From positions 288,001 through 352,000 of the forward strand of contig CAVTBR010000001.1 in NCBI GenBank assembly GCA_963733055.1: a DNA stretch of 64,000 nt, written 5' to 3'. Origin of the DNA: Candidatus Bathyarchaeota archaeon. GTDB taxonomy: Archaea > Thermoproteota > Bathyarchaeia > 40CM-2-53-6. The stretch's first letter is position 1, and each line of letters begins with the position of its first letter. The position numbers and the translations under genes are program-made. Below are positions 5,985 to 55,392 of this stretch, one piece after another. The notes beneath the pieces were generated by a model. The model was not told where the DNA came from. It saw nothing but the letters and a program-made list of their open reading frames with translations, and ran no database searches.

Positions 5985-6131
5985 TATTCTTCAAGCTATA
6001 ACCCGCGGACTTTGCTTTTATAACTTTGTAGAAACAGAACCCCGGGAAGGATTAGGGTAGTCTAAGTTGAATACAAACCCGCGGTATGCGGAACCGAGTA
6101 CACCGAGAACATGAAAGGGTCAGGTTGAAAG

Positions 6132-6626: not shown

Positions 6627-6672
6627 AATCGGATCTGCAGCCGCAATTCGAACAACGAGTCACCAATTGTGC

Positions 6673-8106
6673 TCAACTTTTTGGTACTCCGAATCCGATG
6701 CCCATCCAGCTGGTGTCGGGGGTTCGTGTGGCGTAGATGGCTAATGCAAGCGCCCAGAGCTCATCATCGTGAGTTCCATCCGGATGGCTGAATTGGGTTT
6801 GGCCGATTTTGGTGAGTTCGTAGTGTTCCACGTTGATTTGGGCGATTAGGTCTTGGTCTAGGTAGAGGCCGACACTTTCGGTTTCCATCATGTTCTTCAT
6901 GTAACCAAGGATCTCTTGCTTGGACGGGACCGTGAGCATAACGCCCTCGATTATGCTCTTGATGTGCACGTTCTTCATTTCCTCGGTAATGTATTCGCCC
7001 ACACCGGTTCGGTCTACTAGCACTTTCTCGACGCGTTGGAGTTTGTCGCAGATCACCTTCACGTAGCCAATTACGGTGGCGTATGGTGTCTCGAGGGGAA
7101 AGCGAACTACGCTCACGAGCTCTGCCGCCTCCTCTTTCGTGTTCCACTGAACCACCGCTATGACTGAGTTGTCAACTTTCTTGCCGAAGTCGACGCCAAC
7201 AAAGTATCGTCCCGCCGGGGCGATTACGTGCTTTGTCCAGTCGTCGGTGATTGGGGCGAGATCGCTGGCGATACATTGGGCGATTAGTTTCTGTGTGAAG
7301 TAGACGAGCTCGTCCTCAACGAACTCGGCTAGGTATTCTCGGCGGAACCTCTCGCTGGGGGTTCGTTGCTTCATCTCGTCGACGAACTTCTGCGTCGTGA
7401 GGCCGGTGTCCACGACTTCTTTGATTTTGACCCATTGTTTGCTGAACGCTTTTTCTTGGGTGAACTTGTAGAAGACCGAATCCTTGCCCCATGGCGTGCT
7501 GCTTGCGATCAGAGTCCCATCAGTTGTCTGCAGCATGGGGAAGAGGACACTGTAGAAGACGAGTTCGTCTTCACGAAAGAACGCTGCTTCGTCGGTGAGC
7601 ACGTTGCTGGCAGTATAACCTCTCAGGAGGTTGGGGTTGTTGGGTAACGCAACAATCTGCGACCCTTCCCGGAACCAGATAACGGTCCGCTGCATCTTCG
7701 CAACGATCAGGCGGCGCAGCGGTTTGTTAATTGAGAGAAGGAAACGGTGGATCCTATCCATCACGATCATGGATTGGCGGCGGCCCGGGGCCACGATGAG
7801 GCTGGTGGTGCCGGGGTGGGTGGCTGCGTACCAGATCATGCGGACTGCGAGTGTGGTTGTTTTCCCGGATTGCCTGGGCCATACCACCACGATGCGTTTG
7901 CTCGGGTCCTCAAGAAGCGCAACCTGGTAGGGGGTTGGGTTGAAGCTGAGAATATCCTGGGCGAACTTAACGATCTCTTTCCCGTAGTAGTCTCGAGTCT
8001 TCGAATCCCAGATTATGGTTTTCTCAGGCCTCGATGCGTCGCCGCCTGGCGCGTTTTCAGCTTCCAGCTGTTCCGCTGCTTTTTCCAGTTGTTTTTTCAA
8101 GTTCAT
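6673..8106 (-). CDS. Terminase large subunit (ATPase + RNase H-fold nuclease)
   Basis: PTPYQ, Walker A PRQSGKTT, Walker B LTDEAAF, SSTP, nuclease GVDFG / VDRTGVG / HDDEL. Confidence 0.92.
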   Translation of the reverse strand: MNLKKQLEKAAEQLEAENAPGGDASRPEKTIIWDSKTRDYYGKEIVKFAQDILSFNPTPYQVALLEDPSKRIVVVWPRQSGKTTTLAVRMIWYAATHPGTTSLIVAPGRRQSMIVMDRIHRFLLSINKPLRRLIVAKMQRTVIWFREGSQIVALPNNPNLLRGYTASNVLTDEAAFFREDELVFYSVLFPMLQTTDGTLIASSTPWGKDSVFYKFTQEKAFSKQWVKIKEVVDTGLTTQKFVDEMKQRTPSERFRREYLAEFVEDELVYFTQKLIAQCIASDLAPITDDWTKHVIAPAGRYFVGVDFGKKVDNSVIAVVQWNTKEEAAELVSVVRFPLETPYATVIGYVKVICDKLQRVEKVLVDRTGVGEYITEEMKNVHIKSIIEGVMLTVPSKQEILGYMKNMMETESVGLYLDQDLIAQINVEHYELTKIGQTQFSHPDGTHDDELWALALAIYATRTPDTSWMGIGFGVPKS

Positions 8107-10351: not shown

Positions 10352-10693
10352 GTGCTTTCAGGTACAGGTAACATAGACAAAGTCGGACGTTATGGGGGCG
10401 CAAGGGTCTATATCCCGTCCAAGGTTGCATTTGATAGCACACTTCCGTTCAAAATGGGAGAAGAAGTAAAGATCCAGATAGATCCAGAGATGAAAACGCT
10501 GCTTATACTTCCCGCTAACGATCAACGCAGCCTTACAGTAATCGAAACAAGAGCGCTCAGGGAACTGTCAACCGAACTCAGGCACTTCATCTCACTGTTC
10601 AGGGACCTGCCAACAGAACTGTCTAACAGGCCGGACGCAAAACGACAGGCGTCCAGGATCGAGAGGAAGCTGGATGAGTTAGTTCTGGCTTAG
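10352..10693 (+). CDS. AbrB/MazE-like DNA-binding domain protein
   Basis: ARVYIPSKV..DSTLPFKMGEEVKIQID; TTTATATAAA box at ~10308 favours the GTG 10352 start. Confidence 0.65.
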   Translation: MLSGTGNIDKVGRYGGARVYIPSKVAFDSTLPFKMGEEVKIQIDPEMKTLLILPANDQRSLTVIETRALRELSTELRHFISLFRDLPTELSNRPDAKRQASRIERKLDELVLA

Positions 10694-10767
10694 ACTCAGA
10701 GGCACACCAAGCTTACCAAACACTCTCCGCCAGGCTCGCGGTAAGGCACTCTACTTCTTCTGACTCT

Positions 10768-10890
10768 GTGAAGGTTCTAACCCGAGACTTGGCCGGTGAG
10801 TTCGAGAAACTTTGTGCACTTCTAGCCATATCCGAGAGGGAAGCTGCGGAGCTAGCTATGCGAACCTGGGTCAAAGGAAACTGGGATTAA
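10768..10890 (+). CDS. 40-aa RHH/CopG-like microprotein or remnant
   Basis: Manual translation MKVLTRDLAGEFEKLCALLAISEREAAELAMRTWVKGNWD. Confidence 0.35.
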   Translation: MKVLTRDLAGEFEKLCALLAISEREAAELAMRTWVKGNWD

Positions 10891-10919
10891 GCACAGAAGA
10901 AACTTGACCTCTACGCTGA

Positions 10920-11355
10920 GAAGGGCGGCCAACCTGTTGGGTGATTACCCTTCCACCAGGTGGCAGGGCTCAAGCGACTTCGCTTGGTTCAAGGTCTTCA
11001 TGATGATTCAGCACCAAATCAAAGCTACCGTCCTGAAAAGGAAATTGCACGCTTCGACATTCAACCACCTCGATTCCGAACTTGGTTAAGCGTTTCTTTG
11101 CAACGGGAACGTTGACCTTCCATTCTTCTGTGGCAACAACCCGATTCGGGAGACTGGAGAATACTTCCGCTAGAAACTCGCCCCCTCCTGTGCCCATGTC
11201 CAGAACAGATCTGGCGGATTTAGCTGCTTCACGAACTAATGAACCATAGTTCCAAGGCGGCGCAGCACCGACCCGTCGCCACGAGTCATTCGAGAAACTC
11301 CAGCCGGAGAAATGGCGCGCCCGTTCAACGTAAGGTCGCAGTGAATCTATCGCCT
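10920..11355 (-). pseudogene. Class I SAM-dependent methyltransferase pseudogene
   Basis: FSGWSFS..PPWNY..LDMGTGGGE; in-frame TGA at 10970-10972 within EVA*ALPPGGRVITQQVG; no start codon and C-terminally truncated. Confidence 0.8.
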
Positions 11356-11639
11356 TAGTGATCTGTCGGCATTTTCTTCTGGGCGATCAGCTTGAACTCG
11401 AAGTGGAATTGGTCGGGCTTCTGGTTCAGCTGATTGATCTTCTCCGACAAGTAGTGGGGTCGGAGTCCCACGCTCATGTCGCAGATGTCGTAGTACGCTT
11501 GACAGATGTTAGGCGGCACCCTCATGGTCCCTAGCTTCGTGAAACCCATCTTAAGCATCTCTCCATCGAGGTCTTCCTGCGCTTCTAGGAGTGTGGCCTC
11601 GTTAAGGTGTTGGATCTCGACCAGAAGTAGCATGCTCAT
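11355..11639 (-). CDS. Hypothetical protein
   Basis: C-terminal 94 aa of ORF 11355-11864, not overlapping the nuclease gene. Confidence 0.45.
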   Translation of the reverse strand: MSMLLLVEIQHLNEATLLEAQEDLDGEMLKMGFTKLGTMRVPPNICQAYYDICDMSVGLRPHYLSEKINQLNQKPDQFHFEFKLIAQKKMPTDH

Positions 11640-11699
11640 CCACCACGCTTCACTATCGATAGCGAGAACATAAGCGTTCGATGCTGACATATCGAGTGC

Positions 11700-12275
11700 G
11701 TGCGGTGGTGTTTGGTGGAGGACCCTCAGGCTCATTGGAAAGCGATGGGTCACCTGTGGGAGGTGGCTGCCGAATCTCTGCTCAAGAAAATGGGGTATCG
11801 GATACTGAGAGCCCAGCACCTTGACATCAACGTGAAGCGCGAGAGACGCCTGCGCAATCTTCACAAGGACAAAGACTTCGATTGGTACTTGTGGAAATAC
11901 CCTGACTATATCGTCGAACGGAAATCCACCATTGGTCTCGTGGATGTGAAGAGCAAGCCGCTTCTGCCCCTTCTCGGGAGATCGTCAAGATGGGGGGATT
12001 ACGGAGCCGGCTCAATCTCTTTCACTGGGATGGAGATGAGAGCCTATCCCGAGTCGAGGATCCCGGTCCAAGTTTTGCTAATTCGCTATCGTGATAGAGA
12101 CGACTTGAGGAGACTCGGCCCCGTTGAGTTTAGCCTTATTCCCTTTACCGAGTTCGAATTCAGGCCGGACTGGGCTGGTGGTTTCCCGCCCGCATCAGTG
12201 CGCTGGAAGACGCTGAGTTCTCGAGCAGCCTACAGCATTCTGCCAAAGGCTGTAAAGTCTCTTGGTGTAAAGTAG
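11700..12275 (+). CDS. PD-(D/E)XK restriction-endonuclease-like protein
   Basis: GHLWE..AESLL..GY, YPDYIV, LVDVKSK. Confidence 0.75.
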   Translation: MRWCLVEDPQAHWKAMGHLWEVAAESLLKKMGYRILRAQHLDINVKRERRLRNLHKDKDFDWYLWKYPDYIVERKSTIGLVDVKSKPLLPLLGRSSRWGDYGAGSISFTGMEMRAYPESRIPVQVLLIRYRDRDDLRRLGPVEFSLIPFTEFEFRPDWAGGFPPASVRWKTLSSRAAYSILPKAVKSLGVK

Positions 12276-12327
12276 GTGCAGTCTCCGTGTCTGATCATTA
12301 GATTTGACCAAGCTGACATGTCTCACG

Positions 12328-12834
12328 TTATCCAGACTGTTTCCATCTTTGGGTTGCTATTCGTATGATGAGGTCTCTGCAAGTGACTAGGTCACTCCAT
12401 GCTTCCTCATCAGAGACCCAGAGCTGTACTGGCTCGAGCATTCTGGTTGAATGGGCTTGTTCGTAGTACGCTCGGTCTATGCGCTGTGCGAGGTGGGCTC
12501 CAAGGTTTCCATGCTCTCTTGCAGCATCGATTCGTTTTGCGAAATCCTCATCGATCAGGTGGTTCGTCTTTGCCCACTCGAAATTTTCCTGCCACACAGT
12601 ATTCTTTACGAGCTCGTGTGAAGCTGAGCGATCGGTGATCGTTGGCGTAGTTTTCGCTGTATGAAGTAGCGTCTCCATGGACGCTCTAGTGCATAAGCAG
12701 CAGGCGAGATTGGCGTGAGCATAGAAGCACCGGACCGCCTCCCCGAAGAGGTCTGCAGCTTTCGATAGTACGAACCACTTATCGACCACGTTCTTGTTCG
12801 TGGTCAGGGAAAACCAGAGTTCACTGTAAGCCAA
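12328..12834 (-). CDS. DUF4145/HEPN-like protein
   Basis: EAVRCF, RASMETLL, REHGNLGAH. Confidence 0.7.
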   Translation of the reverse strand: MAYSELWFSLTTNKNVVDKWFVLSKAADLFGEAVRCFYAHANLACCLCTRASMETLLHTAKTTPTITDRSASHELVKNTVWQENFEWAKTNHLIDEDFAKRIDAAREHGNLGAHLAQRIDRAYYEQAHSTRMLEPVQLWVSDEEAWSDLVTCRDLIIRIATQRWKQSG

Positions 12835-12864
12835 TTGTGTCTACCCGCTTCTTAGTGAGGTGGT

Positions 12865-13533
12865 CTATTTGATTATTTGACCAGTTTTGTTTGACCATAT
12901 CAATAGGTCAAGATCGTCCATCGGAATGGAGCTGTCCCTAGCCAATTCCATCATCCTCTTCTCATATTCAAGATACTGAGACTTTCTCAGAGCTTGCTCG
13001 TAAATCTTAGAAACGTAGTTAAACTTCTTCAACTCCCTCTGGATATGTCGGTCCAAGAGCGCGAGCCCGCAACCCAATCCAATTCCAACATTTCTGAGAA
13101 ACTGACTTGCGACTTTCCAACCAACACCACTCTTCTGAGATGCGAGATATTCTCTAGCGCCTAGGATCTCCCAATCATTGGTTCTCTTGAATTTGCCTTC
13201 GAGAACATACTTGATTCTCATGGTTTCTTGATTGGCGAATTTGTCACGCCAACTTACGATGTGTATGGACCTATTCCAGAGCGCATAATGGTGCTGTCTT
13301 AGGTAAGTTTGGATTTGCTCATTTGTACCGTCAAAGAGCAACCTACTGCTCTCAAGTTCGGCAACCAAAGGGAGCGTTCTCGCAGCATCCTGCCTTGCTA
13401 GCAAAATGCCATAGCAAAGTTCGGCAAAAACGCCTTCATCGCTTTTGCCCCATCCGGTTCTCAATTCTTTAAGCCGCTCTTGAATCAAAACGCGCTTTGT
13501 TTGATATGCTTGCTGAAGGTCTTGCACTGTCAT
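12865..13533 (-). CDS. Ogg2-type N-glycosylase/DNA lyase (HhH), divergent
   Basis: FAELCYGIL, GVGWKVASQFLRNVG, LDRHI, YLEYE, LDLLIW, terminal Lys; start may extend to 13599. Confidence 0.85.
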   Translation of the reverse strand: MTVQDLQQAYQTKRVLIQERLKELRTGWGKSDEGVFAELCYGILLARQDAARTLPLVAELESSRLLFDGTNEQIQTYLRQHHYALWNRSIHIVSWRDKFANQETMRIKYVLEGKFKRTNDWEILGAREYLASQKSGVGWKVASQFLRNVGIGLGCGLALLDRHIQRELKKFNYVSKIYEQALRKSQYLEYEKRMMELARDSSIPMDDLDLLIWSNKTGQIIK

Positions 13534-13640
13534 TGGGTTGGCGCGTTGTACGATTATCGGTTTAACGTAAACTGATTCAGCCGACATATCACAGGCCACT
13601 CTCGACAGTTTCAGCCACGAACCAACTTAGTCACGAAGAG

Positions 13641-14276
13641 CTAAGCGACGGAGTTCCCGTTCCTATTCAGAGCATCATTCAACGCTTCGAAAACAGGTAT
13701 CGAAGCTGCAACTATCCGTTGGGCTGTGGGTCGATCAACATCGACTTGGTGGAGCGCTCGATTGCAAATCCTTGTTATGCTCACAATTGGTTCGACCAAG
13801 TTATCTGAAAGTATCCCTCTGCTAGCAAGGATCTTTACAATCTCTCCAAGTGGATATTTCACGGGCTCGTCAGGTCCAGATAGCTGTCTAAGGACCTGTT
13901 CAAGTCCCATACGGATCGATGCCAAAGCTAGATTCGGATCTTCATCAATCACCCTGTAAGCCAGTGCAACTTGGTTCGGAATGAGCGGCGCGATCGGTCT
14001 AGAAGTAACGATCCGTACAGTTTGCCTTTCCAGTGCTTCAACTTCTTCACGAATCTCCAATCCCCCTCCCCCGGGGAGCGATATCTTCGTCACAAAAGGG
14101 AAAAGCCAGGGAGATACGAAAATCAGAAAGAACACAACACTCGTAGTGTCAATTTGTCCCCATGACGCAGCGTGAAAGACAATCATTAACCCTGCCGCTA
14201 GAGAAATTAACAGTGAGGTCGCGTAGTATCTTCTTCCTCTAAACAATTTGCTCGACAATTGCTGCGATGACACCAC
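13641..14276 (-). CDS. 2-TM + DUF4145/HEPN-like protein
   Basis: Two N-terminal TM helices; LALASIRMGLEQ, ICNRALH. Confidence 0.65.
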   Translation of the reverse strand: MVSSQQLSSKLFRGRRYYATSLLISLAAGLMIVFHAASWGQIDTTSVVFFLIFVSPWLFPFVTKISLPGGGGLEIREEVEALERQTVRIVTSRPIAPLIPNQVALAYRVIDEDPNLALASIRMGLEQVLRQLSGPDEPVKYPLGEIVKILASRGILSDNLVEPIVSITRICNRALHQVDVDRPTAQRIVAASIPVFEALNDALNRNGNSVA

Positions 14277-14329
14277 GTGCGTATTCTATCCATCGCATTA
14301 ACTTGAATCTTTTCGGAGTTACCAGCGCG

Positions 14330-15388
14330 CTAATAGAACTGCCAGAACCGACGGAAGCCTTCGGCATCACCGATGCTGAGCATCTGCATGAGAGATCTCA
14401 GTTCACTTCCATCTACGAGCTGCACACTCCTCTTGTTACATTCTTCGCGCGCGTGACTCGTGTCTATCTTCGTCGTTACCATAGCTGCCCGCACTTTACC
14501 GGAATTGCCGTCGAAGAGCTCTTGGCTCAAGTATTCAGCGCATTCTTTGATGCTAGAGATTTCTTTATCCTGGGGAAGATCCATGGTACATGAAACGACG
14601 TAAATAGTGCTGTACTGCGGAGCATATGCAATCAGGTCTGCGCTACCTTTAGTGAACTTTGACTCTTTGATAATCAGTTTCTCGAACTCGTCGAGCTTGA
14701 CGACGCAAAAGACACCGGAGGAGGAGAGAAGCCATGATACCGCTCGTTCGAATACCCTGCTAGGCCGTGAAACCTTCTCGGGGGAGAGTAATTGTTTGCT
14801 CAAATCCTCGACTGAACAAAATCGGTCTAGAACCAATCTTAGTGGAAATTCAACCCCGAATACCCTGTTCGGATGCTTGAGGAGAAGACCTGAAAGTTCT
14901 CTGCCTTCTTCATCGAGATTTAGTCCACCAAGAAGCAAGCGCGCATCTATGTGGTCATGGATCGCCCAATGTTGCAGCTTAGTTGAGAGAGTAACTCGAT
15001 TAATAGAATTACCAAGTTTTTCAACTCCAATATTTTTCAAGCAGAATTCATATTCCTCCTTCGGCGGTCCGCTTCGCGCACCCCACCCCTCGCCAGACAA
15101 CAGATGAACGACCAGTCTAGCGCTGTTGAAGCGGTCATGGAAAGATATCGTTGATGAAAAAGTTGATCCGTCAAATGAAACAGCGTCAATCCGAGCATAA
15201 ACTGGCAACGATACGAAAATACTGTAACCAGCATTCATGCTTTGATCTAGGTGAACCTGAAGGCAGGAGCTCACCGCCTGATAGATGTCTCTATACCCAA
15301 GCGTTCTGACGTCGAAAGAGGCTCGGTCCAACGTCTCTTGGTCGGGACCGGCGTCTCCACGATTTATCGCTCCGCCATATTGCGCCAT
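14330..15388 (-). CDS. Protein with C-terminal Mrr-like restriction-endonuclease-fold domain
   Basis: FERAVSWLL, ADLIAY, VVSCT, VQLVDGSEL; may be fused by frameshift to 15364-15771. Confidence 0.6.
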   Translation of the reverse strand: MAQYGGAINRGDAGPDQETLDRASFDVRTLGYRDIYQAVSSCLQVHLDQSMNAGYSIFVSLPVYARIDAVSFDGSTFSSTISFHDRFNSARLVVHLLSGEGWGARSGPPKEEYEFCLKNIGVEKLGNSINRVTLSTKLQHWAIHDHIDARLLLGGLNLDEEGRELSGLLLKHPNRVFGVEFPLRLVLDRFCSVEDLSKQLLSPEKVSRPSRVFERAVSWLLSSSGVFCVVKLDEFEKLIIKESKFTKGSADLIAYAPQYSTIYVVSCTMDLPQDKEISSIKECAEYLSQELFDGNSGKVRAAMVTTKIDTSHAREECNKRSVQLVDGSELRSLMQMLSIGDAEGFRRFWQFY

Positions 15389-15771
15389 TCCTTTTCAATG
15401 AAGTATGTCGAGTATCTGGACAGACCACAATTCAACGATGCGATATCGGGCACCGGTTTTATGGCGACAGGCACTTCTTGAAGCTCAACTTTACCCGATG
15501 CGAAGGCTTGTTGGAAATCCTTCCAATCGTCCTCCACTGTCCCGCTCGCATAGTATGTTCGAAAGCACCGAGTAACAATAGGCTTGGTTCGTCTTACGGT
15601 TGTAGACCCGTCGCAGAGGAAGCGAATCGACGATGCGTAGTTTACCCACTCATCACCTTGTCGAAAACATGCAAATCGCACGTCAACTCGGCTAAAGAAA
15701 TGAGACAGTTCTTCAAGAAGTTGTCCGAACTTAACAGCAGACATACTAACGCTTAGGATCAGCGCAGACAA
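15364..15771 (-). CDS. Hypothetical protein; possible N-terminal part of the downstream nuclease gene
   Basis: Overlaps the next ORF by 25 nt on the same strand. Confidence 0.5.
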   Translation of the reverse strand: MSALILSVSMSAVKFGQLLEELSHFFSRVDVRFACFRQGDEWVNYASSIRFLCDGSTTVRRTKPIVTRCFRTYYASGTVEDDWKDFQQAFASGKVELQEVPVAIKPVPDIASLNCGLSRYSTYFIEKEWRNMAER

Positions 15772-15925
15772 AGAGTTTCCTAAATTTGCAACGCTCGTCT
15801 CCGATTGAGGAACTAGTCGAAGGCGACAATGCTTTGTCCCACAAAATGTCTAGTTTTAGAGTGTGTACCACCAATCATGTTTCGAGACCACGTTGGTAGA
15901 CATACGGGCTTCGGAGCGAAGAACC

Positions 15926-16972
15926 ATGCTGACGCTTGCACCAGTCTTCAACGTTGATTTTGAACAACCTCAGTTGGAGCTTTCAGAGAACCTGTGCTTA
16001 CGCATTTTGACAAATGAGGAAGTTCAGGTCATTCGTGAGAATGAGAACAGATTCAGAGCGCTTCCTCTCAACGCGCTTACGAAACTGAAATTTGCTATAG
16101 CCTGTATCACTGAAGTATCCTCCCCATGGGATCTCCTAACCCAGAGCAGGGCAACCAAACGGATTAACCTCGTAATTGCCGCTTTCCGACTCTGGAGCGG
16201 TGTCAATCTCCGATCACCTCTCAGATTTCAAAGGATAGAAGTAAGCAACGTTTTGTACAATCTACCAATCGGCGATCGAGAGAGAGAATCACTCTTAAAG
16301 AAGATTAATCCATTTTCTATCACTAAATTGAGCTCTCCTGAACCCTTTGCAGTAAGCGAAGTAAATCGATTCTCAAAGGCGGATGCAGAAGCGTTCGCTC
16401 AGCTTTTCAGAAGTATGGAGAAAGACAATCAAGGCAATTTGAAAGTGGCTTTTCAACGGCTGAAAATGTTCTCAGAGGAAGAATGGCCTGAGAAGATCAT
16501 TGATGCAATGATAGCCTTCGAAGCCCTTTACGTCAAGAGAGGAGATAAACGGTCCAAGTCTGAACAGATCGCCTCAGGAGCTGCAAAGCTCATAGGGCAA
16601 ACCCCTGCTGTGGCCGAATTGCTTCACGCTGCATACAAGCTAAGGAATAGAATCGTGCATGGAGAAGATGTGACCTCAGACCACTGGAATGAACTCACTA
16701 GACTGGCAATCATGAACGACCCTGATTTGAAATCCTTGATATCTGAACCGACTACGGACAGTCACGAAGAACTTCCACCAAACGCCCCCGTCGAAGCGAT
16801 AGGCAACTGTTTGTGTGAATCGATTAGCGCTAAACTAACACATGAAATCGACAACGAGGATAGACACGCAAGAGAGGGGGCCGGAGCGGAGCAGGGCTCA
16901 ACGTCACAGCCGCAACATGACCAAAGAACCGAGCTTTACCATAGCGACGATTATGATGGTTATCAGGATTAA
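15926..16972 (+). CDS. Apea-like HEPN domain protein
   Basis: IIDAMIAFEALY, AYKLRNRIVHG. Confidence 0.8.
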   Translation: MLTLAPVFNVDFEQPQLELSENLCLRILTNEEVQVIRENENRFRALPLNALTKLKFAIACITEVSSPWDLLTQSRATKRINLVIAAFRLWSGVNLRSPLRFQRIEVSNVLYNLPIGDRERESLLKKINPFSITKLSSPEPFAVSEVNRFSKADAEAFAQLFRSMEKDNQGNLKVAFQRLKMFSEEEWPEKIIDAMIAFEALYVKRGDKRSKSEQIASGAAKLIGQTPAVAELLHAAYKLRNRIVHGEDVTSDHWNELTRLAIMNDPDLKSLISEPTTDSHEELPPNAPVEAIGNCLCESISAKLTHEIDNEDRHAREGAGAEQGSTSQPQHDQRTELYHSDDYDGYQD

Positions 16973-17060
16973 CAAATGGAGCAATCGAAGAAAACTTCAA
17001 AAAAACGGCCCAAAATGAGGAGAAATCCGTAGAAAATGGTCTATCAATCCCATGAGATGA

Positions 17061-17412
17061 TGGGGCTGGTGGGATTTGCACCCGCCGGTGTCCGCTAGGT
17101 TCAGCCTGCAGACTCACCGGTCTATCTTCCGAGTCAGCTTTGCACATGTAACTGACACCGATCGGTATAGTATACGAACCTGGAACATAAGCCTCTGGGA
17201 TAACATCGCCAACATGAATCGTCTTGAGGTGATGGAAGGCAAATTACTCTCATTATAAGTCGATTCAGCAGCGCAGAATTCCGGACTACGATGCCATACT
17301 TAGGAGCTAGGATAGCTCCCTTGATCTCCTATGCCTCGCCGGCAGGGTCGCACATGGGCGCAGTTGTGGAGACAACTGAAATCGGATTCAACGTACACGA
17401 CCCTGATCTCCT
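17061..17412 (-). ncRNA. Candidate ~350-nt structured RNA ending in a tRNA-like T-arm/acceptor 3' strand
   Basis: Five consecutive stem-loop domains with G-U pairs that form only on the minus strand; ends GCGGG-TGCAAAT-CCCAC-CAGCCCC-A. Confidence 0.5.
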
Positions 17413-17437
17413 GTTCAATGTATCCTCTGGAATCAAT

Positions 17438-17824
17438 CTAATTGAAACACACATCTACTCGTGCCTTGGATAAGAGGAATTCTTGAAGTCTTTCCGTGCT
17501 GCTGAAACTTCTCTTGACCCCGACTTCGGATCTCGATAGTAGGTATACATGTGATTTGTCTAAAGCAACGTTTTCGTCCTCCCCTTGTAAGCTGACCAGA
17601 GCCAGTATATCGTATAATTTCCGCTCCTCGGGAGCTGGCCATTGATCATTCACGGAAGTCTTCACCTGTATAGTCCGTAAACTGAGTCCTTTAGCTGCTA
17701 TGAGATCGTTTCCACTATCCTTGAGAGTGAACGATGCTTGGACTCCATACTGAAGCAGTCGCATAACCACAAGCAATTCTCCTATTGTTCCCGTCTTTAG
17801 ATTCTCATCCAACGGATTTGCCAT
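17438..17824 (-). CDS. Small PD-(D/E)XK endonuclease (PDDEXK_5 / Hjc-like)
   Basis: GTIGELLV, GNDLIA, TIQVKTS. Confidence 0.8.
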   Translation of the reverse strand: MANPLDENLKTGTIGELLVVMRLLQYGVQASFTLKDSGNDLIAAKGLSLRTIQVKTSVNDQWPAPEERKLYDILALVSLQGEDENVALDKSHVYLLSRSEVGVKRSFSSTERLQEFLLSKARVDVCFN

Positions 17825-17976
17825 GACGATGCGTAACCTCGGTCGGAGATTTACGTACTACCTAAATTCTCTCAGGCCAACAAAATGCGAGTAGTTTCGC
17901 TGGTTTTTTCAGGTAATAATAGGAGAGGAGCGCATTTCGAGCAACAGGCGCACAATTTACTCAACCGGTGAGGTAG

Positions 17977-19200
17977 CTATTTTGATGATTTGAGATACTC
18001 AAGCGCGTCGCTTATTGCATCCAATTCTTTCTCACGCAAACCGCCGTATTCGAATATGGCTCTCACGGACGAGATCGAATACTTTTCCAATGCGAACTTC
18101 CACAACACGCTCAACATCAAATCAGCAAGAAGTTTGCTGAAGATTAAGTCATGGTGGCCGATCAACTCCAACTTACCTTCATGAACCATGGAATTACGTT
18201 TGAGCAATGTCACGTCTACTTCGGATTCAAAGGCTGGAGATTTGTTCACGAAATATTTGCGAACTCTGTCTTTGAGGACCTTCTCTGGAGTTATCTGCCT
18301 CAAGGTAGCAATAGTCTCAACTACGATCCAATACTTCAGAAAAGCAAAGGCAGCATCGGTTTCAGTCACAGCAGAGCTGTACACATCGAGAGATTCAAGT
18401 AACAGACTCGCAAGGTTGCTATCCTCGAGTGGATAATACATCTCATCGAGAACTTTCTTGAATCTTGCCACATCAAGCAGCTTTGTTCCTGTCAGGTAGG
18501 GATCTGGAATATCAACAACTGTCCAATCGATCAAGCCTTTCTTTTCGAATGCGAATATACTTCTTGAAGGTCTGAAATTCGTTAGAGGTGTGTTGGACAA
18601 TGGATGGATTGTTCCTCCGACGCATTCATAGTTCACGAGTGCAAAGAATCTACTTACGAGATTAGACAACTCTCGAAACGCAAAGGAGGCATCTCGAGCC
18701 TGAATCTTAGAGCTAACCCAGACCAAATTCGCCAAAGAAGGAACGTAACCTGATGCCAACTGAAAATACTCTTTGATCCGATCCTCTGCGATGGTCGACA
18801 GGTCTGAATGTGTCTCAAAGTCCAGCTTTTGCGCACGGACATCGCAGGTCGGGCCGAATTGCTTCACGAAATCAGCCGGTAGCGGAGTCGGGGAGATTAC
18901 GATCAGCTCTTTCATGGGTAATGAGTGCAGGCTCGCGAGTTCGTTCTCTATCTCTCTGACTAGTGATGGAATCGAGTCAACGCCGTTTCCTTTGAATTTG
19001 CTGATTGCTTTTTCCACGACGGCAAGAGTCTGGTTGCTTCTCAATTGCCAAACTCGCTTGCGAACGTTGTTGCCGTCGGACAATTGTAGACTGGCAGCTA
19101 TGATCTCACAGCAGTGCTGAATTTCATGTATCCGATTTGGTCGGCCCAAGAATTTCAGAGAGTGATTTGCTAGTGCAAGGAACGAATCATCTGACTGCAT
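17977..19200 (-). CDS. Apea-like HEPN domain protein
   Basis: SLDVYSSA, FLKYWIVVE, KRNSMVHEG. Confidence 0.75.
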   Translation of the reverse strand: MQSDDSFLALANHSLKFLGRPNRIHEIQHCCEIIAASLQLSDGNNVRKRVWQLRSNQTLAVVEKAISKFKGNGVDSIPSLVREIENELASLHSLPMKELIVISPTPLPADFVKQFGPTCDVRAQKLDFETHSDLSTIAEDRIKEYFQLASGYVPSLANLVWVSSKIQARDASFAFRELSNLVSRFFALVNYECVGGTIHPLSNTPLTNFRPSRSIFAFEKKGLIDWTVVDIPDPYLTGTKLLDVARFKKVLDEMYYPLEDSNLASLLLESLDVYSSAVTETDAAFAFLKYWIVVETIATLRQITPEKVLKDRVRKYFVNKSPAFESEVDVTLLKRNSMVHEGKLELIGHHDLIFSKLLADLMLSVLWKFALEKYSISSVRAIFEYGGLREKELDAISDALEYLKSSK

Positions 19201-19298
19201 AATAGGATGACCGTCGTAGCCGTGTTTTCAAGCCTTTGCTGACGTTCGTCTGTTCCTGATCATCGAGAGCCTACCTTTATTTCAGCAGCTAGAACAGA

Positions 19299-19398
19299 GT
19301 ATTGACAAGGAATCGAGGGTAGATTCTGTTGAGTAATCTAACTTCTGTGATTTTTCAATACGCAAAACAGGTGCGGCGGTAACGAAATGCGTATATAA
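19299..19398 (+). promoter_or_regulatory. 63-bp imperfect inverted repeat followed by BRE/TATA promoter of the HTH operon
   Basis: GTATTGA/TCAATAC, AATC/GATT and TAGATT/AATCTA arms; CGAAA then GTATATAA at 19391-19398. Confidence 0.55.
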
Positions 19399-19432
19399 AG
19401 TGCTATTGCGTTATAGAGTAGAGCTGAATTGT

Positions 19433-19789
19433 ATGGCTGACGAAAACGAAGAACTCGGACTGCTGAGGGAAATCAACGAGAATTTGAAAGTGATTAGAAA
19501 GCTCACTGAGATACAGCTTCACGGACCAATCAAGGACGAACTGACAAAGTTCGCCTCGTCAGCAGAGCGGAGAAAGCTTTGGATGCTGTGTGACGGAACT
19601 ACTACCACCATAGAGATGTCGAGAAGAATCGGCGTTAGTCCGAGAGCCGTTCAGTATTTCGTCCAGGATGGACTGAAAGCCGGTTTCCTCAGAGTCGACA
19701 GACGGGGTTATCCAAGTCGAGCAATAGACTGGACTCCGCCAGAGTGGGAACGAGCTCAAGGCGAAACAAGGGAGAGCAGAAATGAGTGA
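19433..19789 (+). CDS. Helix + winged-HTH protein 1
   Basis: LLREINENLKVIRKL helix; LCDG.TTIEMSRRIGVSPRAVQ. Confidence 0.75.
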   Translation: MADENEELGLLREINENLKVIRKLTEIQLHGPIKDELTKFASSAERRKLWMLCDGTTTTIEMSRRIGVSPRAVQYFVQDGLKAGFLRVDRRGYPSRAIDWTPPEWERAQGETRESRNE

Positions 19790-20087
19790 GTCAGAATTCA
19801 AGCACTTGACAAAGCAGAATGACACGATCATTACACTGCTGGGACATTTGGCGTTCAAAGCGCAAGATATCAAGGACATTGTGACTAAGAAGAAGCAGAA
19901 CCCCGACAACTATGTCAAAGGATACAATGCCTGTGACGGACAACATACAGTATCTCAGATTGCTCAGATAGTGGATGTCAAATCTGGCACGCTCACGCCC
20001 ATTCTCCAGGAGTGGGAAGAATTGGGGATTATTCGTGAAATCGAAAAGCCTGGAGGCAGGTTCTACAAGAAGCTGTTTCCTATTTAG
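19782..20087 (+). CDS. Helix + winged-HTH protein 2
   Basis: ACDG.HTVSQIAQIV..GTLTPILQEWEELGII; 8-nt overlap with the previous gene. Confidence 0.8.
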   Translation: MSESEFKHLTKQNDTIITLLGHLAFKAQDIKDIVTKKKQNPDNYVKGYNACDGQHTVSQIAQIVDVKSGTLTPILQEWEELGIIREIEKPGGRFYKKLFPI

Positions 20088-20095
20088 GTGAAAAC

Positions 20096-20332
20096 ATGGA
20101 CGAAAAACAGTTCACAGAACTCATGGGCAGGCTCGGTGTCCTAAGTAAACTCCTCGCTTGGAATATTCTCCAAGGCAAGGAAAGTCTAACTCAGCGGGCT
20201 CTGGCACTCTCCTCAGCCGGTTTGGAAAGGAAGGAGATTGCATGGTTACTGGGTCAAGATCCAGATCTGATTAGTCAGACACTATACCAGGCCAAGCAGG
20301 CAAAGGGAAGCAAGAAGGAGAGAGTCAAATGA
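20096..20332 (+). CDS. Helix + HTH protein 3
   Basis: AGGTGA SD; LSSAGLERKEIAWLLG..LISQTL. Confidence 0.75.
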   Translation: MDEKQFTELMGRLGVLSKLLAWNILQGKESLTQRALALSSAGLERKEIAWLLGQDPDLISQTLYQAKQAKGSKKERVK

Positions 20333-20598
20333 GCGATCAAGAACAATTCGCCAGACTGATTGAGCTGATTGAGGCGATCCTGAGAACGAGAATCACGGAG
20401 CTGTTGGACAAGGAGCTAGATGATCCCAAGAAGAAGAAACTATACGAACTTACTGGCAGAAAGAAAATAGTCGAGCTTAGCAAACTCACTGATCTCTCAA
20501 CAGGAACTATCTCGGGCCTCTGGCAGAGATGGTATTCGATGGGCATCCTGAAGAAACAAGGCAAGCTCTACGTCAAGTTCTTCGAGGAGGAGATCTAA
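20329..20598 (+). CDS. Helix + winged-HTH protein 4
   Basis: ATGA overlap; LYELTG..IVELSK..LSTGTISGLWQRW..GIL. Confidence 0.75.
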   Translation: MSDQEQFARLIELIEAILRTRITELLDKELDDPKKKKLYELTGRKKIVELSKLTDLSTGTISGLWQRWYSMGILKKQGKLYVKFFEEEI

Positions 20599-20685
20599 GA
20601 CGACTGAAGAACCGCTGAGAAGAACTACAAGGAATAGAGAGACGTGCGTCTCTTAGTGTCTCCGGCAGAAGAAGAGGTGATATCG

Positions 20686-20850
20686 ATGCCAAAGAAGCCA
20701 AAAACAGTTGAAGAGCACCTCGAAATCATGGAGAATCTGCTCGCTGGTGTTATTCTAAAGCGTGAACCGAACGTGAAAAAGCTAGCCAAGATTATGGGTG
20801 TCTCCAGTGACAAGCTTACTGAATTGTATCCTACTTCCAGGAAGAAGTGA
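20686..20850 (+). CDS. Helix + HTH microprotein 5
   Basis: GAGGTGA SD; LEIMENLL, VKKLAKIMGVSSDKL. Confidence 0.65.
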   Translation: MPKKPKTVEEHLEIMENLLAGVILKREPNVKKLAKIMGVSSDKLTELYPTSRKK

Positions 20851-20875
20851 GAGAAAACCGAAGAGTGATTGACGG

Positions 20876-21577
20876 ATGTTGGATCGTGCTTCACTCATCA
20901 GCAATTTGAGAGCGTTCTGTGCTGGATCGCCCAAGAAAATAGCAATTTTGAAAGCCGTCCGAAAGCGAACATATTACAAGGAAGTTGCGAAAAATGTTCA
21001 CGCTAGAGAGGACTACTGTTCTAGCGTTCTTAATGGCTTACGGGCAAATGAGTTAGTCGAAGGAAAACGCGGTTTCTATCAGCAGACACCGTTGATGAAA
21101 ACCATCAACATAGATTCTGAGTTAAAGAAGCAAAGTGGAAGAGTACGAGTCGCACAAACAAAGCAAACTCCTACAGAGAAAATTAGAGTACTTGACCTAG
21201 AAAAGGCGCTTGATCAGCTAGACGTCGACTCGGTAATCAAGAGTGACTGCTTTCCTCTGCGAAAACCCTACAGAACTCATGTAGGGGAAGCGTATCTAAC
21301 TGTAGAGAATTTCATCAAACAAGAGTTGCGATTGCCCGATTCCCTCGTGGGTACAGATCTCGTTTCCGAGGCTGTCAAGAAGGGACTCTTCGATAGGTCG
21401 GTCAATTCTGAGAAAGAAGGTCTAGCTCTTCTCTTCAGAGGAGCCGTGCTTTGGCTTAGAAACCCAGCTCATCATAGGAAGGGAGACATGCCTAGAGAGG
21501 ATGCCCTTAAGATGATACTGTTTGCAGACTACCTGTTGAAGTTAGTTAGAAGGCAAAAAGAACTGAACAAACTCTAA
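20876..21577 (+). CDS. wHTH + TIGR02391 (Ymh-like) domain protein
   Basis: N-terminal HTH; EAYLTVE, GTDLV, SEKEGLALLFRG, LRNPAHH. Confidence 0.8.
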   Translation: MLDRASLISNLRAFCAGSPKKIAILKAVRKRTYYKEVAKNVHAREDYCSSVLNGLRANELVEGKRGFYQQTPLMKTINIDSELKKQSGRVRVAQTKQTPTEKIRVLDLEKALDQLDVDSVIKSDCFPLRKPYRTHVGEAYLTVENFIKQELRLPDSLVGTDLVSEAVKKGLFDRSVNSEKEGLALLFRGAVLWLRNPAHHRKGDMPREDALKMILFADYLLKLVRRQKELNKL

Positions 21578-21715
21578 ATGATATTCGCAGTTTGACCATG
21601 CGCTCAACTCATGTCTATTTGGTCGATATAACAATCGTTCGCCGATATTGCAGATTTTTCGTGATCAAAACAGACATCAAGATAAGATTGATCGGAGCAT
21701 TTCTTTCGGAGACAA

Positions 21716-24238
21716 TTGGACGTTCAGGAGTGCCTAGAAGCCATCGTAGAGAGCATACGTAAGAAGAAGATGTCTATCTGGGTTGGAGCTGGAATATCTC
21801 TACCGTCTCTTCCTTTGGGAAATGAATTGAAGTTTTGCATACTTGAGGAAGTATGCGCCCATCCCTCACTTCGGAAATATGGAGATCGATTGCAACGAGG
21901 GCAGGACATAGCGAGAGATGTGGAGAAGCTTCCGCTCGAATGGATAATTCAAATCACATCCACCCTGGATTCGTCGATCCTTGCTTGCGTCGCCAACGTG
22001 TTTAGGGGCGGCTCTTCGAACAAGAATCATTTCCTGATAGCTCAGCTAATTGCGCAAGGTTTTGTCTCGCAGGTCATGACAACAAACTTTGACCTCCTGA
22101 TCGATAGAGTTCTCGAGAACGAGCTAGGATTACGAAGAGGATCCACTTTCAACCTACTGTATCGTGAGTCTGAATTTGAAAATATCAAAGCGATCAAAAA
22201 CCGACCCACCCTCTACAAGATTCATGGCAGTGCAGATGACGAATCTAGCATAAGAGTCACTTTGAACAATGTGGCGAGCAGGGGACTTTCGGACCGCAGA
22301 GCCGAAGCCTTGGAACACTTTCTCAGCTCGGGAGACATTCTTGTTCTTGGCTACAGCGTGCGAGATGACTTTGACATCAATCCGATTCTGTCGAAAATAC
22401 CATCGAAAGGGCGTATTTTCTACGTTAGACACGTAAGGGAAGGATTCAGCATAAGGAAGCTGCCAAAAGCATTCTCTAGGTTTCCAGGAACAACTATTCA
22501 TTTTGACACGGCTAAGCTGATTGACTATCTGTCGAAGTCAATTCTAGACCAAGATCCGAAGCAACTCTCGGTGAAGATGGGATTAGAATCTGGGAACTGG
22601 AGGAAAACGATCGAGGCATGGGCGGAAAGGCTCCAATTGTCTAAGAGATGCCTTATCATGGGATCGATTCTTCTTGAGATACGGCGGAATGATTCATATG
22701 AATTATTCAGAAGGGCGAGCAAAGCATGTGTCGTCGATCATAACCTTCCCGGATTAGCGACCGCCCTCTATAGTATGGGCATGATAGAGCAAGAAAGAGG
22801 CAGGTACAACAAAGCGCTGACATTTTTCGATCAGACGCTGCGGCTTGACCGTAGACTCAACGATCAACATGGGATAGCGGTTACCTTACGTTTGATGGGG
22901 AAAATCCAACTAGACGTCGGCAATTTTGCCAAGGCTGCAAGGCTATTCCTTCGAGGTGCAAATATTCTTTACGAGCTTGGGGATTTGTATGAATTTGCCA
23001 CTGCTGTCCAGGACTTGGCTGTTTTGGAGATGGACAATGAAAATTATCCTCGAGCGACAGCGTTCTTCGGTCAGGCAAAGGAAACCTTCGAGAAGTTAGG
23101 CAACGTGTCAGGAGCAGCGGGAGTGTCGCAAAATTTGGCGATAATTGAGGAGCGAAAAGGAAACCTGAAGGAGGCTTCAAGACTATGTCGAAAAGCCTTA
23201 GAGACCGCATCAAGCCTCTCAGATGAACCTGAAATCGGCGCTGCACTTCATCATCTCGGCACTATTGAGCAGAGTCTAGGAAATTATGCGACGGCCAAAC
23301 GATTCTTCGATCGGGCTTTGAAGATTCGACTAAGCCTGAAAGACTTGGCAGGATTGGCAAGTACAACCAGTGAACTGGCCAAACTCGAAGTCCTGTTAGG
23401 ACATTATGGTAGAGGTCGAATTCTGTACAACAGAGCGAAGAAGTTCTTCTGCAAGCTGGATCACTCATATGGAATCGCCAATTGCCTTCAAGAGCTGGCA
23501 ATAGTAGATGTGTACGAGGGGAAATATCAGAGGGCCGTCCAGTTGACGAATGAGAGCCTTGAGATTAGGAGGCAGGGTCCAAACCAATCAGCTGTCGCAG
23601 CATTGCTGGACCAATTGGGATCAATTGAGTTGCTGCAACGGAAATACGTTGAGGCGAAGACACATTGCAAAAAGGCGCTGCAAATATTTCGCAAACTGGA
23701 CGATCAAGCTGGAATTGCAGGAGCTCTTCATGACCTCGCCAGTGTCTACGAAGAGAGTGGTGACCTCCCTAGAGCCATAGCGATGTATAATCACAGCCTG
23801 AAAATTAAGCGGAGAATCAAAGATCGTCATGGAATGGCCAAAACTTTTCATCAGCTAGGTTTAATCGAGTATCGCAGAAAACACTACGACAGGGCCAGGA
23901 AATATTGTGACGATAGTCTACGAATCAAACGGAAGTTAGGCGACAAACACGGAATCGGTGCGACGCTGCTTCAGCTTGGTGCAGTCGAACATGCGAACAA
24001 CAATCTTGTTCAAGCAGAGCAGTTCTATACTGAGGCTCTGGCGCTTTTCCGCGCCATCGGAAGCCAAACAGCCGAATCTTCCGTTCTAACAAATCTTGGA
24101 ATACTCGAAGTGACTAATCAGAATTACGATGCGGCAGGGGAATTTTTCAAAGAAGCTCTGACAATAGAACGCAAGCCGGGCAATCGCCATAATGCTGAAC
24201 AGCTGCTTATGACACTACAGGGTCTCTCTAGACTCTAA
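21716..24238 (+). CDS. SIR2-like (SIR2_2) domain + TPR repeat protein
   Basis: WVGAGIS, TTNFD, KIHGS, LGYS.RDDFDI followed by many ~40-aa TPRs. Confidence 0.9.
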   Translation: MDVQECLEAIVESIRKKKMSIWVGAGISLPSLPLGNELKFCILEEVCAHPSLRKYGDRLQRGQDIARDVEKLPLEWIIQITSTLDSSILACVANVFRGGSSNKNHFLIAQLIAQGFVSQVMTTNFDLLIDRVLENELGLRRGSTFNLLYRESEFENIKAIKNRPTLYKIHGSADDESSIRVTLNNVASRGLSDRRAEALEHFLSSGDILVLGYSVRDDFDINPILSKIPSKGRIFYVRHVREGFSIRKLPKAFSRFPGTTIHFDTAKLIDYLSKSILDQDPKQLSVKMGLESGNWRKTIEAWAERLQLSKRCLIMGSILLEIRRNDSYELFRRASKACVVDHNLPGLATALYSMGMIEQERGRYNKALTFFDQTLRLDRRLNDQHGIAVTLRLMGKIQLDVGNFAKAARLFLRGANILYELGDLYEFATAVQDLAVLEMDNENYPRATAFFGQAKETFEKLGNVSGAAGVSQNLAIIEERKGNLKEASRLCRKALETASSLSDEPEIGAALHHLGTIEQSLGNYATAKRFFDRALKIRLSLKDLAGLASTTSELAKLEVLLGHYGRGRILYNRAKKFFCKLDHSYGIANCLQELAIVDVYEGKYQRAVQLTNESLEIRRQGPNQSAVAALLDQLGSIELLQRKYVEAKTHCKKALQIFRKLDDQAGIAGALHDLASVYEESGDLPRAIAMYNHSLKIKRRIKDRHGMAKTFHQLGLIEYRRKHYDRARKYCDDSLRIKRKLGDKHGIGATLLQLGAVEHANNNLVQAEQFYTEALALFRAIGSQTAESSVLTNLGILEVTNQNYDAAGEFFKEALTIERKPGNRHNAEQLLMTLQGLSRL

Positions 24239-24250
24239 AGGGACGAAAAT

Positions 24251-27184: not shown

Positions 27185-27407
27185 ACGTTCCAAATGATGC
27201 TCCGTCAGTCCACGTGATTTGGGTACTAAATATTAGCTGACCTTGGTAATAGAGTGATATCCAGCCTGCCATGCTTGTTGCGAGCCTCTGTGATATTCAT
27301 CGGCTCTTGTGATTTTGAACTTCACCCACCACCTTCTTCTCACATCTCAGGAATGCGTTTCGGCTCAAACGGTAGGCAAGTTTTCAATTAATCAATCTGC
27401 GGAATCG

Positions 27408-27529
27408 TGGCGGGCCCGCGGGGATTCGAACCCCGGACCCCAGGCTTCTCCCGCTTCCTGAAAGCGTTTAGAGGGCCTGTGCTTTAGACGCTCAAACCAG
27501 AAGCACTATCCAGACTGAGCTACGGGCCC
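27408..27529 (-). tRNA. tRNA-Arg(TCT) with two introns (22/23: 27484-27505; anticodon loop: ~27447-27468), encoded CCA
   Basis: GGGCCCG acceptor, TTCGAAT T-loop, CAGGC/GCCTG anticodon stem, BHB-like intron folds; spliced length 75 nt + CCA. Confidence 0.88.
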
Positions 27530-27911
27530 AACCCGAATCCAGACCTGCCAAACTAAAAGCGTTGAGGCCCACGAGGTTCACGGGTTGATAGGCGTGAATT
27601 TCGCGCGTGCCTAACATAGTTTAGGCAAGTTATTTCTGGATGTACTCAGTTGCTGTTTGGAGAAGAGTTTGCGTTTGAAACTATACTTCTGTCCCGCGAA
27701 GCATGTGGACTAATCGCACGTGTGATCTTAACGAGCAAAATGGGGCAAGAACCGCTAAAGTAGCCGATTTCCGCCCCTTTCCGTTATTCAACCTTGAGCA
27801 TCGAAGTATGGGATACAAAATCTGGCTTGCTTTGACACTATCTTGTAACTAACTATCAAGTCAAACTACCTCCATCCCCATTCTACCTTAGAAACGTGTC
27901 AATGAGGATGT

Positions 27912-28505: not shown

Positions 28506-28524
28506 ACTGCGCCGCCTTGACTCT

Positions 28525-55230: not shown

Positions 55231-55392
55231 TGGTGCGGCCGCCGGGATTTGAACCCGGGCGTCTTCTCGCCCGTTTTCTGTGCGGGCGATCAGAAGCGTG
55301 GCAGGCTTGCGCCAGCAGATATTCTCTGCTGTTCCCGTCCTAGACCAGGTTGTCCAAACCGAATTGTGGTCGGTCTTCTAGACTACGGCCGC
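55231..55392 (-). tRNA. tRNA-Gly(GCC) with three non-canonical introns (55350-55377, ~55307-55332, 55261-55290), encoded CCA
   Basis: GCGGCCG acceptor, CT-GCC-AC loop, TTCAAAT T-loop; removing 28+26+30 nt gives 75 nt + CCA. Confidence 0.9.

Follow-up and report, generated by a model that had tools for sequence, protein, structure and literature searches.

When an element integrates into the 3' part of a tRNA gene, this part becomes duplicated, so that each integration event, or each imported attP, leaves a copy of the tRNA end without the tRNA body. Split and multi-intron tRNAs occur in Thermoproteota and Nanoarchaeota. According to two publications, it is mostly the 3'-distal portion of tRNA genes with which archaeal elements recombine, tRNAs with introns also serve as integration targets, and attB may reach past the tRNA gene (PMC6563490, PMC8371274). 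A small nuclease, an intron RNA and a tRNA gene are found together in the case of I-Ssp6803I, whose reading frame lies in a group I intron of 655 nt within the Synechocystis tRNA-fMet gene (PMC1995217).

The locus analysed here lies in a window of 64 kb, by which the whole stretch of DNA under analysis is meant (C1:288001-352000 of the genome under study, G000), and all coordinates refer to this window unless a contig is named. The original prediction had placed on its minus strand a structured RNA of ~350 nt with a tRNA-like 3' end, directly behind a PD-(D/E)XK nuclease gene. Our analysis points elsewhere: with a probability of roughly 0.8, the stretch 17002-17087 (minus strand) is an attachment-site relic, in which the 3' end of a tRNA encoded on contig C3 of the same genome and ~60 nt of its putative trailer are preserved as a single, decayed copy. 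The 350 nt before the tRNA-like end are an unconserved spacer with ordinary local inverted repeats and not a conserved RNA fold. The features of the locus and of its surroundings are collected in Table 1.

Table 1. Coordinates of the features at the relic, in the adjoining spacer and in the surrounding island (positions of the 64-kb window).
Feature	Position	Strand	Remarks
tRNA-like end, probable decayed copy of tRNA positions 49-73	17061-17087	minus	T arm, 3' acceptor strand, discriminator
Trailer-like flank	17002-17060	minus	T-rich runs; in relatives it follows the C3-type tRNA or its end copies
Imperfect hairpin, 15 bp	17085-17120	both strands	Abuts the tRNA-like core; sole locally outstanding stem
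Further stems	17207-17273 and 17129-17165	minus	Inverted repeats seen in the sequence
Stem GGGAGCTA/TAGCTCC	17302-17320	minus	Inverted repeat seen in the sequence
Stem CAGGGTCG/CGACCCTG	17398-17405/17343-17350	minus	Encloses CAGTTGT/ACAACTG; inverted repeat seen in the sequence
Spacer (body of the claimed ~350-nt RNA)	17088-17437		Non-coding, unconserved, several local inverted repeats
PD-(D/E)XK nuclease gene, 128 aa, free-standing	17438-17824	minus	Motif and predicted fold
407-aa ORF	17977-19200	minus	Upstream of the nuclease gene; R-N-S-M-V-H; without above-threshold Pfam match
369-aa ORF	15863-16972	plus	Converges on the relic; R-N-R-I-V-H motif; without Pfam match
Strain-specific island, ~20.8 kb	6629-27394		Between a conserved gene and tRNA-Ser(UGA)
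Terminase large subunit	6673-8106		Island gene
Other island genes: DUF4145, Ogg glycosylase, Hypoth_Ymh, SIR2-TPR, STAND-TPR, HEPN-like			
tRNA-Ser(UGA), intron-bearing	27408-27529	minus	ARAGORN -i; right island border

Inspection of the sequence located every stem named in the original prediction at its minus-strand coordinates, confirmed the duplication of the 9-mer AGGAGATCA on the minus strand (17404-17412 and 17322-17330; by our own estimate, the chance expectation for one repeated 9-mer in 355 nt is ~0.24) and confirmed the tRNA-like end GCGGG-TGCAAAT-CCCAC-CAGCCCC-A at 17087-17061. The co-oriented small nuclease ORF does lie upstream, with its stop ~25-30 nt before the first stem, and the reported lack of a 5' acceptor strand was borne out as well, the pattern [GA]GGG[CT]T[GA] being unmatched on the minus strand of 17000-20000. 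The stems, the T-arm-like end and the upstream gene are accordingly where the prediction had them, and the part of the observation that did not hold is the structured RNA.

A whole-region signal was absent when the folding of the claimed RNA was set against shuffled sequence, the check that had been proposed for it: the 355 nt of 17061-17415 (minus strand) folded at -108.8 kcal/mol in comparison to -108.5 +/- 5.4 kcal/mol for the shuffles (z -0.05), 45 of 100 shuffles folded at least as well, and the opposite strand of the stretch gave z -0.88. The five single hairpins reached z values of -2.88, -2.99, -1.32, -1.16 and -3.35 on the minus strand and of -2.61, -1.83, -2.54, -2.03 and -2.83 on the plus strand, all of them biased by the cutting of each hairpin exactly at its stem ends and by the picking of the stems after the fact. 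Since they are comparably strong on both strands, the single hairpins are indicative of inverted repeats at the DNA level without strand preference. The hairpin at 17085-17120, which accounts for the last value of either series, folded at -18.5 kcal/mol on the minus strand and at -15.7 kcal/mol on the plus strand, and 1 of 200 shuffles was equally good. At the scale of 60 nt, the only one covered by the background of 6395 windows drawn from the same 64 kb, the region contributed 3 of its 31 minus-strand windows and 2 of its 31 plus-strand windows to the lowest 5% of that background after GC correction.

The searches for known RNAs were in line with the folding results. Neither strand of 16800-18000 obtained a match in Rfam at E<=10, be it to tRNA, tmRNA, group I intron or any other family, and the single RNA found at gathering thresholds in the whole 64-kb window was the intron-bearing tRNA at 27411-27529 (minus strand). 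ARAGORN reported no tRNA and no tmRNA in the window at default settings, and with introns allowed it made 33 calls across the whole genome, none of them at the relic locus; a tmRNA at the locus was thereby unmatched in both Rfam (E<=10) and ARAGORN. A relaxed ARAGORN run (-ps90, introns allowed) returned a 'tRNA-Phe(GAA)' that ends at 17061, contains an intron of 547 nt and has its 5' half within the nuclease ORF, and this call was dropped, because its acceptor pairs are mismatched at 3 of 7 positions and the setting gives 991 calls genome-wide vs 33.

Conservation of the spacer was equally sparse. The stretch 17084-17900 found nothing in 40 relatives except one 40-nt match (E 0.004), and the spacer alone was matched in 0 of 22 same-genus genomes and, across 58 same-family genomes, by one weak stretch of 42 nt (E 0.004). 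Of the five open frames that lie in the spacer or overlap it, four were devoid of any Pfam match, and a sub-threshold match of a 41-aa frame in the spacer to UL145 (E 0.013) was judged to be noise. With shuffle-like folding, no Rfam match and no conservation in relatives, the ~350-nt structured RNA was not upheld.

The nuclease gene itself is real, and nothing links its family to an RNA partner. The motif, set on the alpha-beta-beta-beta-alpha-beta core of the superfamily, and the predicted fold support the 128-aa product as a PD-(D/E)XK nuclease, in agreement with the original assignment. It has 192 homologues at E<=1e-3, and an alignment of 25 of them displays the motif E16/D40/Q53-x-K55, in which E16 and D40 do not vary, while Q53 and V54 occur in at least 90% and K55 in most rows. 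The best Foldseek matches of its AlphaFold2 model (pLDDT 88.5, pTM 0.84) are I-Ssp6803I (2ost; E 8.9e-4, TM 0.62-0.64), SPARDA nuclease subunits and Hjc, so that the predicted fold resembles I-Ssp6803I and equally Hjc and the SPARDA nuclease. The match to Pfam PDDEXK_5 (PF11645) was sub-threshold (E 0.018; 15.5 bits vs a cut-off of 26.1).

Comparison of 139 homologue loci (59 from genomes and 80 from metagenomes), which took in the closest homologues at 58-65% protein identity, retrieved no DNA like 17040-17437: the best blastn matches had E 0.38 and 1.0, and nhmmer returned none. The gap between a homologue and the next downstream ORF of at least 70 aa has a median of 57 nt and exceeds 300 nt in 1 of 38 cases, as counted over those 39 of the 59 genome loci with near-full-length matches, 38 of which had such a following ORF. 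Rfam recognised two intact tRNAs only, and no intron, on the 20 homologue loci scanned, and tRNAs were near homologues at 5 of the 139 loci, all intact. None of 10 neighbour proteins of the window nuclease was matched at the 59 homologue loci at E<=1e-3, and there is no conserved partner gene. Judged by their sequence context, the homologues are free-standing genes, and they are spread over bacteria and archaea.

These data bear on the first of the three options raised by the original prediction, namely a large non-coding RNA (a guide, an antitoxin or a tRNA mimic) that is made from 17061-17415 (minus strand) and works with the PD-(D/E)XK protein. Its co-orientation with the nuclease gene, ~25 nt past whose stop it begins, the presence of several local hairpins and the slightly above-average folding of the region's windows relative to the genome (mean GC-corrected z -0.54) would all suit such an RNA. 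However, the region as a whole folds no better than its shuffles and equally on the plus strand, Rfam knows nothing like it, the spacer was not found in the relatives searched, and the homologues co-occur with similar DNA at 0 of 139 loci and are mostly followed by short gaps; we consider a nuclease-associated RNA to be very unlikely.

The second option, a degenerate group I intron with a PD-(D/E)XK homing endonuclease residing in a tRNA gene, had a real basis, since I-Ssp6803I is itself intron-encoded in a tRNA gene; that nuclease is the best Foldseek match of the model, PDDEXK_5 is approached below threshold and a tRNA 3' end does follow downstream. Yet no group I intron model matched either strand of 16800-18000 at E<=10, a 5' tRNA exon is missing (no acceptor partner occurs within 3 kb, and ARAGORN with introns is silent at its default threshold), the similarity to tRNA begins at the T stem rather than at the anticodon loop, and the homologues are free-standing, with an intron in 0 of the 20 loci scanned. 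An intron origin is therefore extremely improbable.

The proposed search of the host genome for a tRNA with a matching end was productive, and located it on C3. Together with the TCA that follows it (17058-17060), the tRNA-like end is identical at 24 of 28 positions to the 3' end of a host tRNA (C3:546744-546771). Four positions of the copy differ: C50 leaves the T stem with a mismatched C50.A64 pair, U55 is replaced by G55, the acceptor strand has A67, and CCA has become TCA, all of which is as expected under neutral decay. The mismatch and G55 leave the relic without an intact T arm, and the Rfam tRNA model is unmatched there; a 7-bp acceptor stem is not formable, its 5' strand being absent from the minus strand of 17000-20000 even with G-U pairs allowed. 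The relic has lost features that are required of a tRNA. The original prediction had named, as the outcome that would speak against it, a locus without folding signal, covariation or expression whose last ~24 nt match a host tRNA exactly; as far as the sequence itself is concerned, what we found is essentially that outcome, the host tRNA match being 24/28 rather than exact.

Three near-copies of the 23-mer GGGT..CCCCA occur in the genome, with 2 mismatches each and all on contig C3. One of them closes a full intron-bearing tRNA of 183 nt (G000:C3:546744-546926), which has GGGGCCG/CGGCCCC as its acceptor, possesses a T arm and encodes its own CCA. ARAGORN -i calls this gene tRNA-Glu(CUC) with a single 103-nt intron, and its intron layout is certainly more complex than that; in Rfam it obtains only a sub-threshold tmRNA score (30 bits vs 47). 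Orthologues of the C3 tRNA were found in four other genomes, with the inserted helices altered. An ORF of 358 aa matching Phage_integrase lies ~340 nt downstream of it, and two body-less copies of its 3' end, comprising the last 27-32 nt, follow 18.9 and 43.6 kb further downstream; body-less copies of a C3-type tRNA end are also present in three relatives (G002, G004 and G011). By its layout, this succession of tRNA, integrase and downstream end copies on C3 demonstrably represents integrated DNA at a tRNA target.

The extent of the similarity is also instructive. Its left boundary at the relic is the 5' strand of the T stem, the same as in five body-less copies (L002, L003, L014, L015 and L016), and no tRNA-body similarity was found upstream of the T stem. 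In the other direction it extends ~60 nt beyond the tRNA end into the trailer, and the 82-nt block 17083-17002 shares 74-78% identity with five same-genus genomes, where it stands after an intact tRNA (L013) or after body-less copies (L014-L016). A second copy of the trailer flank exists within the genome under study, behind the middle copy on C3. The flank may be the native trailer of the tRNA or an arm of an element. A tblastx comparison of the surroundings of the sites in three relatives (G011, G018 and G002; 87.6 kb) left the window unmatched near 17 kb, and for the genes that follow the flank in G011 a clear G000 orthologue was not found (43% identity at best, with the second query unmatched).

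A piece of tRNA in an archaeal host with multi-intron tRNAs may also call to mind the 3' half of a split (trans-spliced) tRNA, or a pseudogene descended from a decayed second copy of the gene, more so as the order of T arm and acceptor is kept and the trailer has been copied too, as would happen in gene duplication. Such an origin is nevertheless improbable: the similarity to a tRNA body upstream of the T stem is lacking, the boundary is shared with the five body-less copies elsewhere, and U55, the T-stem pair and CCA are gone. The leader self-folds, a complementary partner was not found in a search of the own genome with 17040-17440, and the C3-type tRNA is not beside tRNA-Ser in relatives.

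As regards the genomic setting, an empty site was identified in G013 (contig C18), where the matches to 6122-6628 and 27394-27579 are 105 nt apart vs 20,765 nt in G000. The stretch 27307-30400, tRNA-Ser included, is common to same-genus genomes, and tRNA-Ser(UGA) is matched over in ~18 of the 22, whereas 10500-27306 had only 2 matches among them. Taken together, the same-genus comparison and the empty site place the relic in the middle of a strain-specific island of 20.8 kb, whose GC content is ~0.46 vs 0.50-0.53 outside and which is a mosaic of a provirus remnant and defence-type genes. In a tblastx comparison of 13000-27600 with the whole genome, all 161 HSPs were self matches, and paralogous modules were none.

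Both large ORFs that flank the relic bear Rx4H motifs. As a lead only, each may be an Apea-like HEPN protein, with an Atlas score of 0.87-0.90 for the 369-aa ORF and of 0.88-0.89 for the 407-aa ORF.

Two features of an attachment site are displayed by the relic: its sequence repeats the 3' part of a tRNA but not the body, and the same tRNA is targeted elsewhere; the feature it lacks is a paired direct repeat that delimits an integrase-encoding element. Of the 6 genomic matches to the integrase family PF00589, none lies in the window, and a second copy of the tRNA-like core was not found within the window. With a single core copy and no PF00589 in the window, no element is delimited, and the locus is a relic or orphan site rather than an active element. 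The Glu-type tRNA does not adjoin tRNA-Ser in relatives, and the target tRNA is on another contig. Given that neither an integrase nor a second core lies in the window and that the Glu-type tRNA is not beside tRNA-Ser, we infer that the copy was imported. Scans of IMG/VR viral contigs for exact tRNA-end patterns, with and without the start of the trailer, returned 0 stretches, exact matching being insensitive, and hence no free element with this attP was found.

A sequence of events consistent with these observations can be proposed. Tyrosine-integrase elements of the genus would use the 3' end of the C3 tRNA as their attachment site; the copy in the window probably came in with an imported element, as its attP or as a junction, rather than forming on the spot, and may be an attP, an attR or a rearrangement; and the spacer lies at the end of the module to which the free-standing nuclease gene belongs. 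The third option of the original prediction, a virus-derived RNA fused to a tRNA att fragment, can hence be retained for its att fragment, that is for the last ~28 nt with their 24/28 identity to the C3 tRNA, and not for its RNA. For the interpretation as a whole, likewise, the tRNA att fragment stands, and the non-coding RNA and the group I intron do not.

Some residual function of the relic was also considered. The hairpin at 17085-17120, the damaged T arm and the acceptor strand could form a minimal tRNA-like 3' module of the nuclease mRNA, which, if true, would serve the ending, processing or stability of that mRNA; or the relic could be a working secondary attachment site, in which case the integrase encoded on C3 could recombine the island with the C3 tRNA locus. 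The strength of the hairpin for its composition favours the former and the still recognisable likeness of the 82-nt block to functional sites favours the latter. But the T arm is damaged, the acceptor helix that RNase P or RNase Z would act on is absent, and the hairpin is made in nearly the same form by the plus strand and is nowhere conserved; both possibilities are very unlikely.

The attachment-site relic, in turn, makes the locus an ordinary one, as a tRNA-end relic in a strain-specific island without any sign of a structured RNA. Its value lies in what it marks and in the caution it conveys. The relic marks an internal module junction in the 20.8-kb island beside tRNA-Ser, and it draws attention to the intron-bearing C3 tRNA as a recurrent integration target in the genus. 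T-arm and acceptor fragments that stand alone in archaeal islands should be compared with the host's own tRNAs before new RNAs are claimed, and this comparison should include the multi-intron tRNAs that standard tRNA finders miss. The 128-aa PD-(D/E)XK family, uncharacterised and widespread, may merit a study of its own.

In comparison to known systems, the window protein is a small PD-(D/E)XK protein like I-Ssp6803I, and the parallel of a nuclease ORF, an RNA and a tRNA end is superficial, as the window locus has neither a group I core nor a 5' exon and the protein identity is 15-17%. With the archaeal Holliday-junction resolvase Hjc and the SPARDA nuclease it shares the fold class, a similar size and the arrangement E...D...(E/Q)xK, although the identity is 13-18% and the third motif has Q for E; unlike Hjc, the window gene is situated in an island and not at a core genome location, and, in contrast to SPARDA, no pAgo partner stood out among those neighbours that were inspected. 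With the split and multi-intron tRNAs the locus shares an archaeal host that has tRNAs with several introns, and an orphan tRNA piece; the relic, however, has its first tRNA residues in the T stem, carries damage at conserved sites and is without a complementary partner. The closest match is to the archaeal tRNA attachment sites (attL, attR and attP) of tyrosine-integrase elements, among which are tandem arrays and decayed relics. The relic differs from them in being solitary, without a partner repeat or a nearby integrase, and in having diverged (24/28 in the core and ~78% over 82 nt) beside a different tRNA, and it is like them in that it repeats the 3'-distal portion of a tRNA without the body, is bounded at the T stem and is lodged in variable, low-GC DNA rich in defence and virus genes.

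Five clustered ORFs of the window carry features of HEPN-type proteins, namely Rx4H motifs, DUF4145 and Hypoth_Ymh, and Atlas leads to an Apea-like HEPN. Together with the neighboring SIR2-TPR and STAND-TPR proteins, these ORFs look like a defence island, and no system was called by PADLOC among these genes. Two of the clustered ORFs, of 369 and 407 aa, flank the decayed tRNA 3'-end copy and the nuclease gene and share an exact 17-nt direct repeat, GGCCGAATTGCTTCACG (16612-16628 and 18852-18868), which reads sense within the former and antisense within the latter; such a repeat is unlikely to arise by chance within 22 kb.

Window 6629-27394 constitutes a 20.8-kb strain-specific island adjoining tRNA-Ser(UGA), the empty site of which is found in a relative (G013:C18). 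This island has neither a flanking direct repeat nor an integrase, and the terminase large subunit at its left end has 93% DNA identity with G019:C3:30022-31296.

Coordinates of genes and loci (window positions unless a contig is named)
Feature	Position	Strand	Remark
Terminase large subunit	6673-8106		left end of island
ORF with HEPN-type features	12328-12834	-	
ORF with HEPN-type features	13641-14276	-	
ORF with HEPN-type features	15863-16972	+	369 aa
ORF with HEPN-type features	17977-19200	-	407 aa
ORF with HEPN-type features	20876-21577	+	
SIR2-TPR protein	21716-24238		adjoins HEPN-type cluster
STAND-TPR protein	24251-27184		adjoins HEPN-type cluster
tRNA-like gene L004	G000:C3:546744-546926		tRNA-Glu CUC, 103-nt intron (ARAGORN -i)
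Second Phage_integrase	C3:530740-531189	opposite	
L021	G011:C3:178000-181400		just upstream of body-less copy of C3-type tRNA end

On contig C3 of the same genome, an integrase lies downstream of the L004 tRNA, and the 3' end of this tRNA recurs as two body-less copies, at 18.9 and 43.6 kb in the downstream direction; this stretch (G000:C3:503173-546926) probably represents tandem integrated elements. In a relative, locus L021 encodes a SIR2-like protein of 373 aa together with a 278-aa Rx4H protein, with no detectable sequence similarity between these defence-type genes and those of the window. Similar defence-type cargo recurs in islands at the C3-tRNA att site, L021 being an instance in a relative.

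A further ARAGORN -i call, tRNA-Arg(UCU) containing an intron of 70 nt, falls at window 55231-55392(-) and is absent from the Rfam list at the gathering threshold. The L004-type tRNA-like gene (orthologues L013, L018, L019 and L024; 181-206 nt) appears to contain several helices as insertions, with the D-loop region among their sites; the loops are variable, and paired changes are seen across species. It is not detected by the Rfam tRNA model and scores 30 bits with the tmRNA model.
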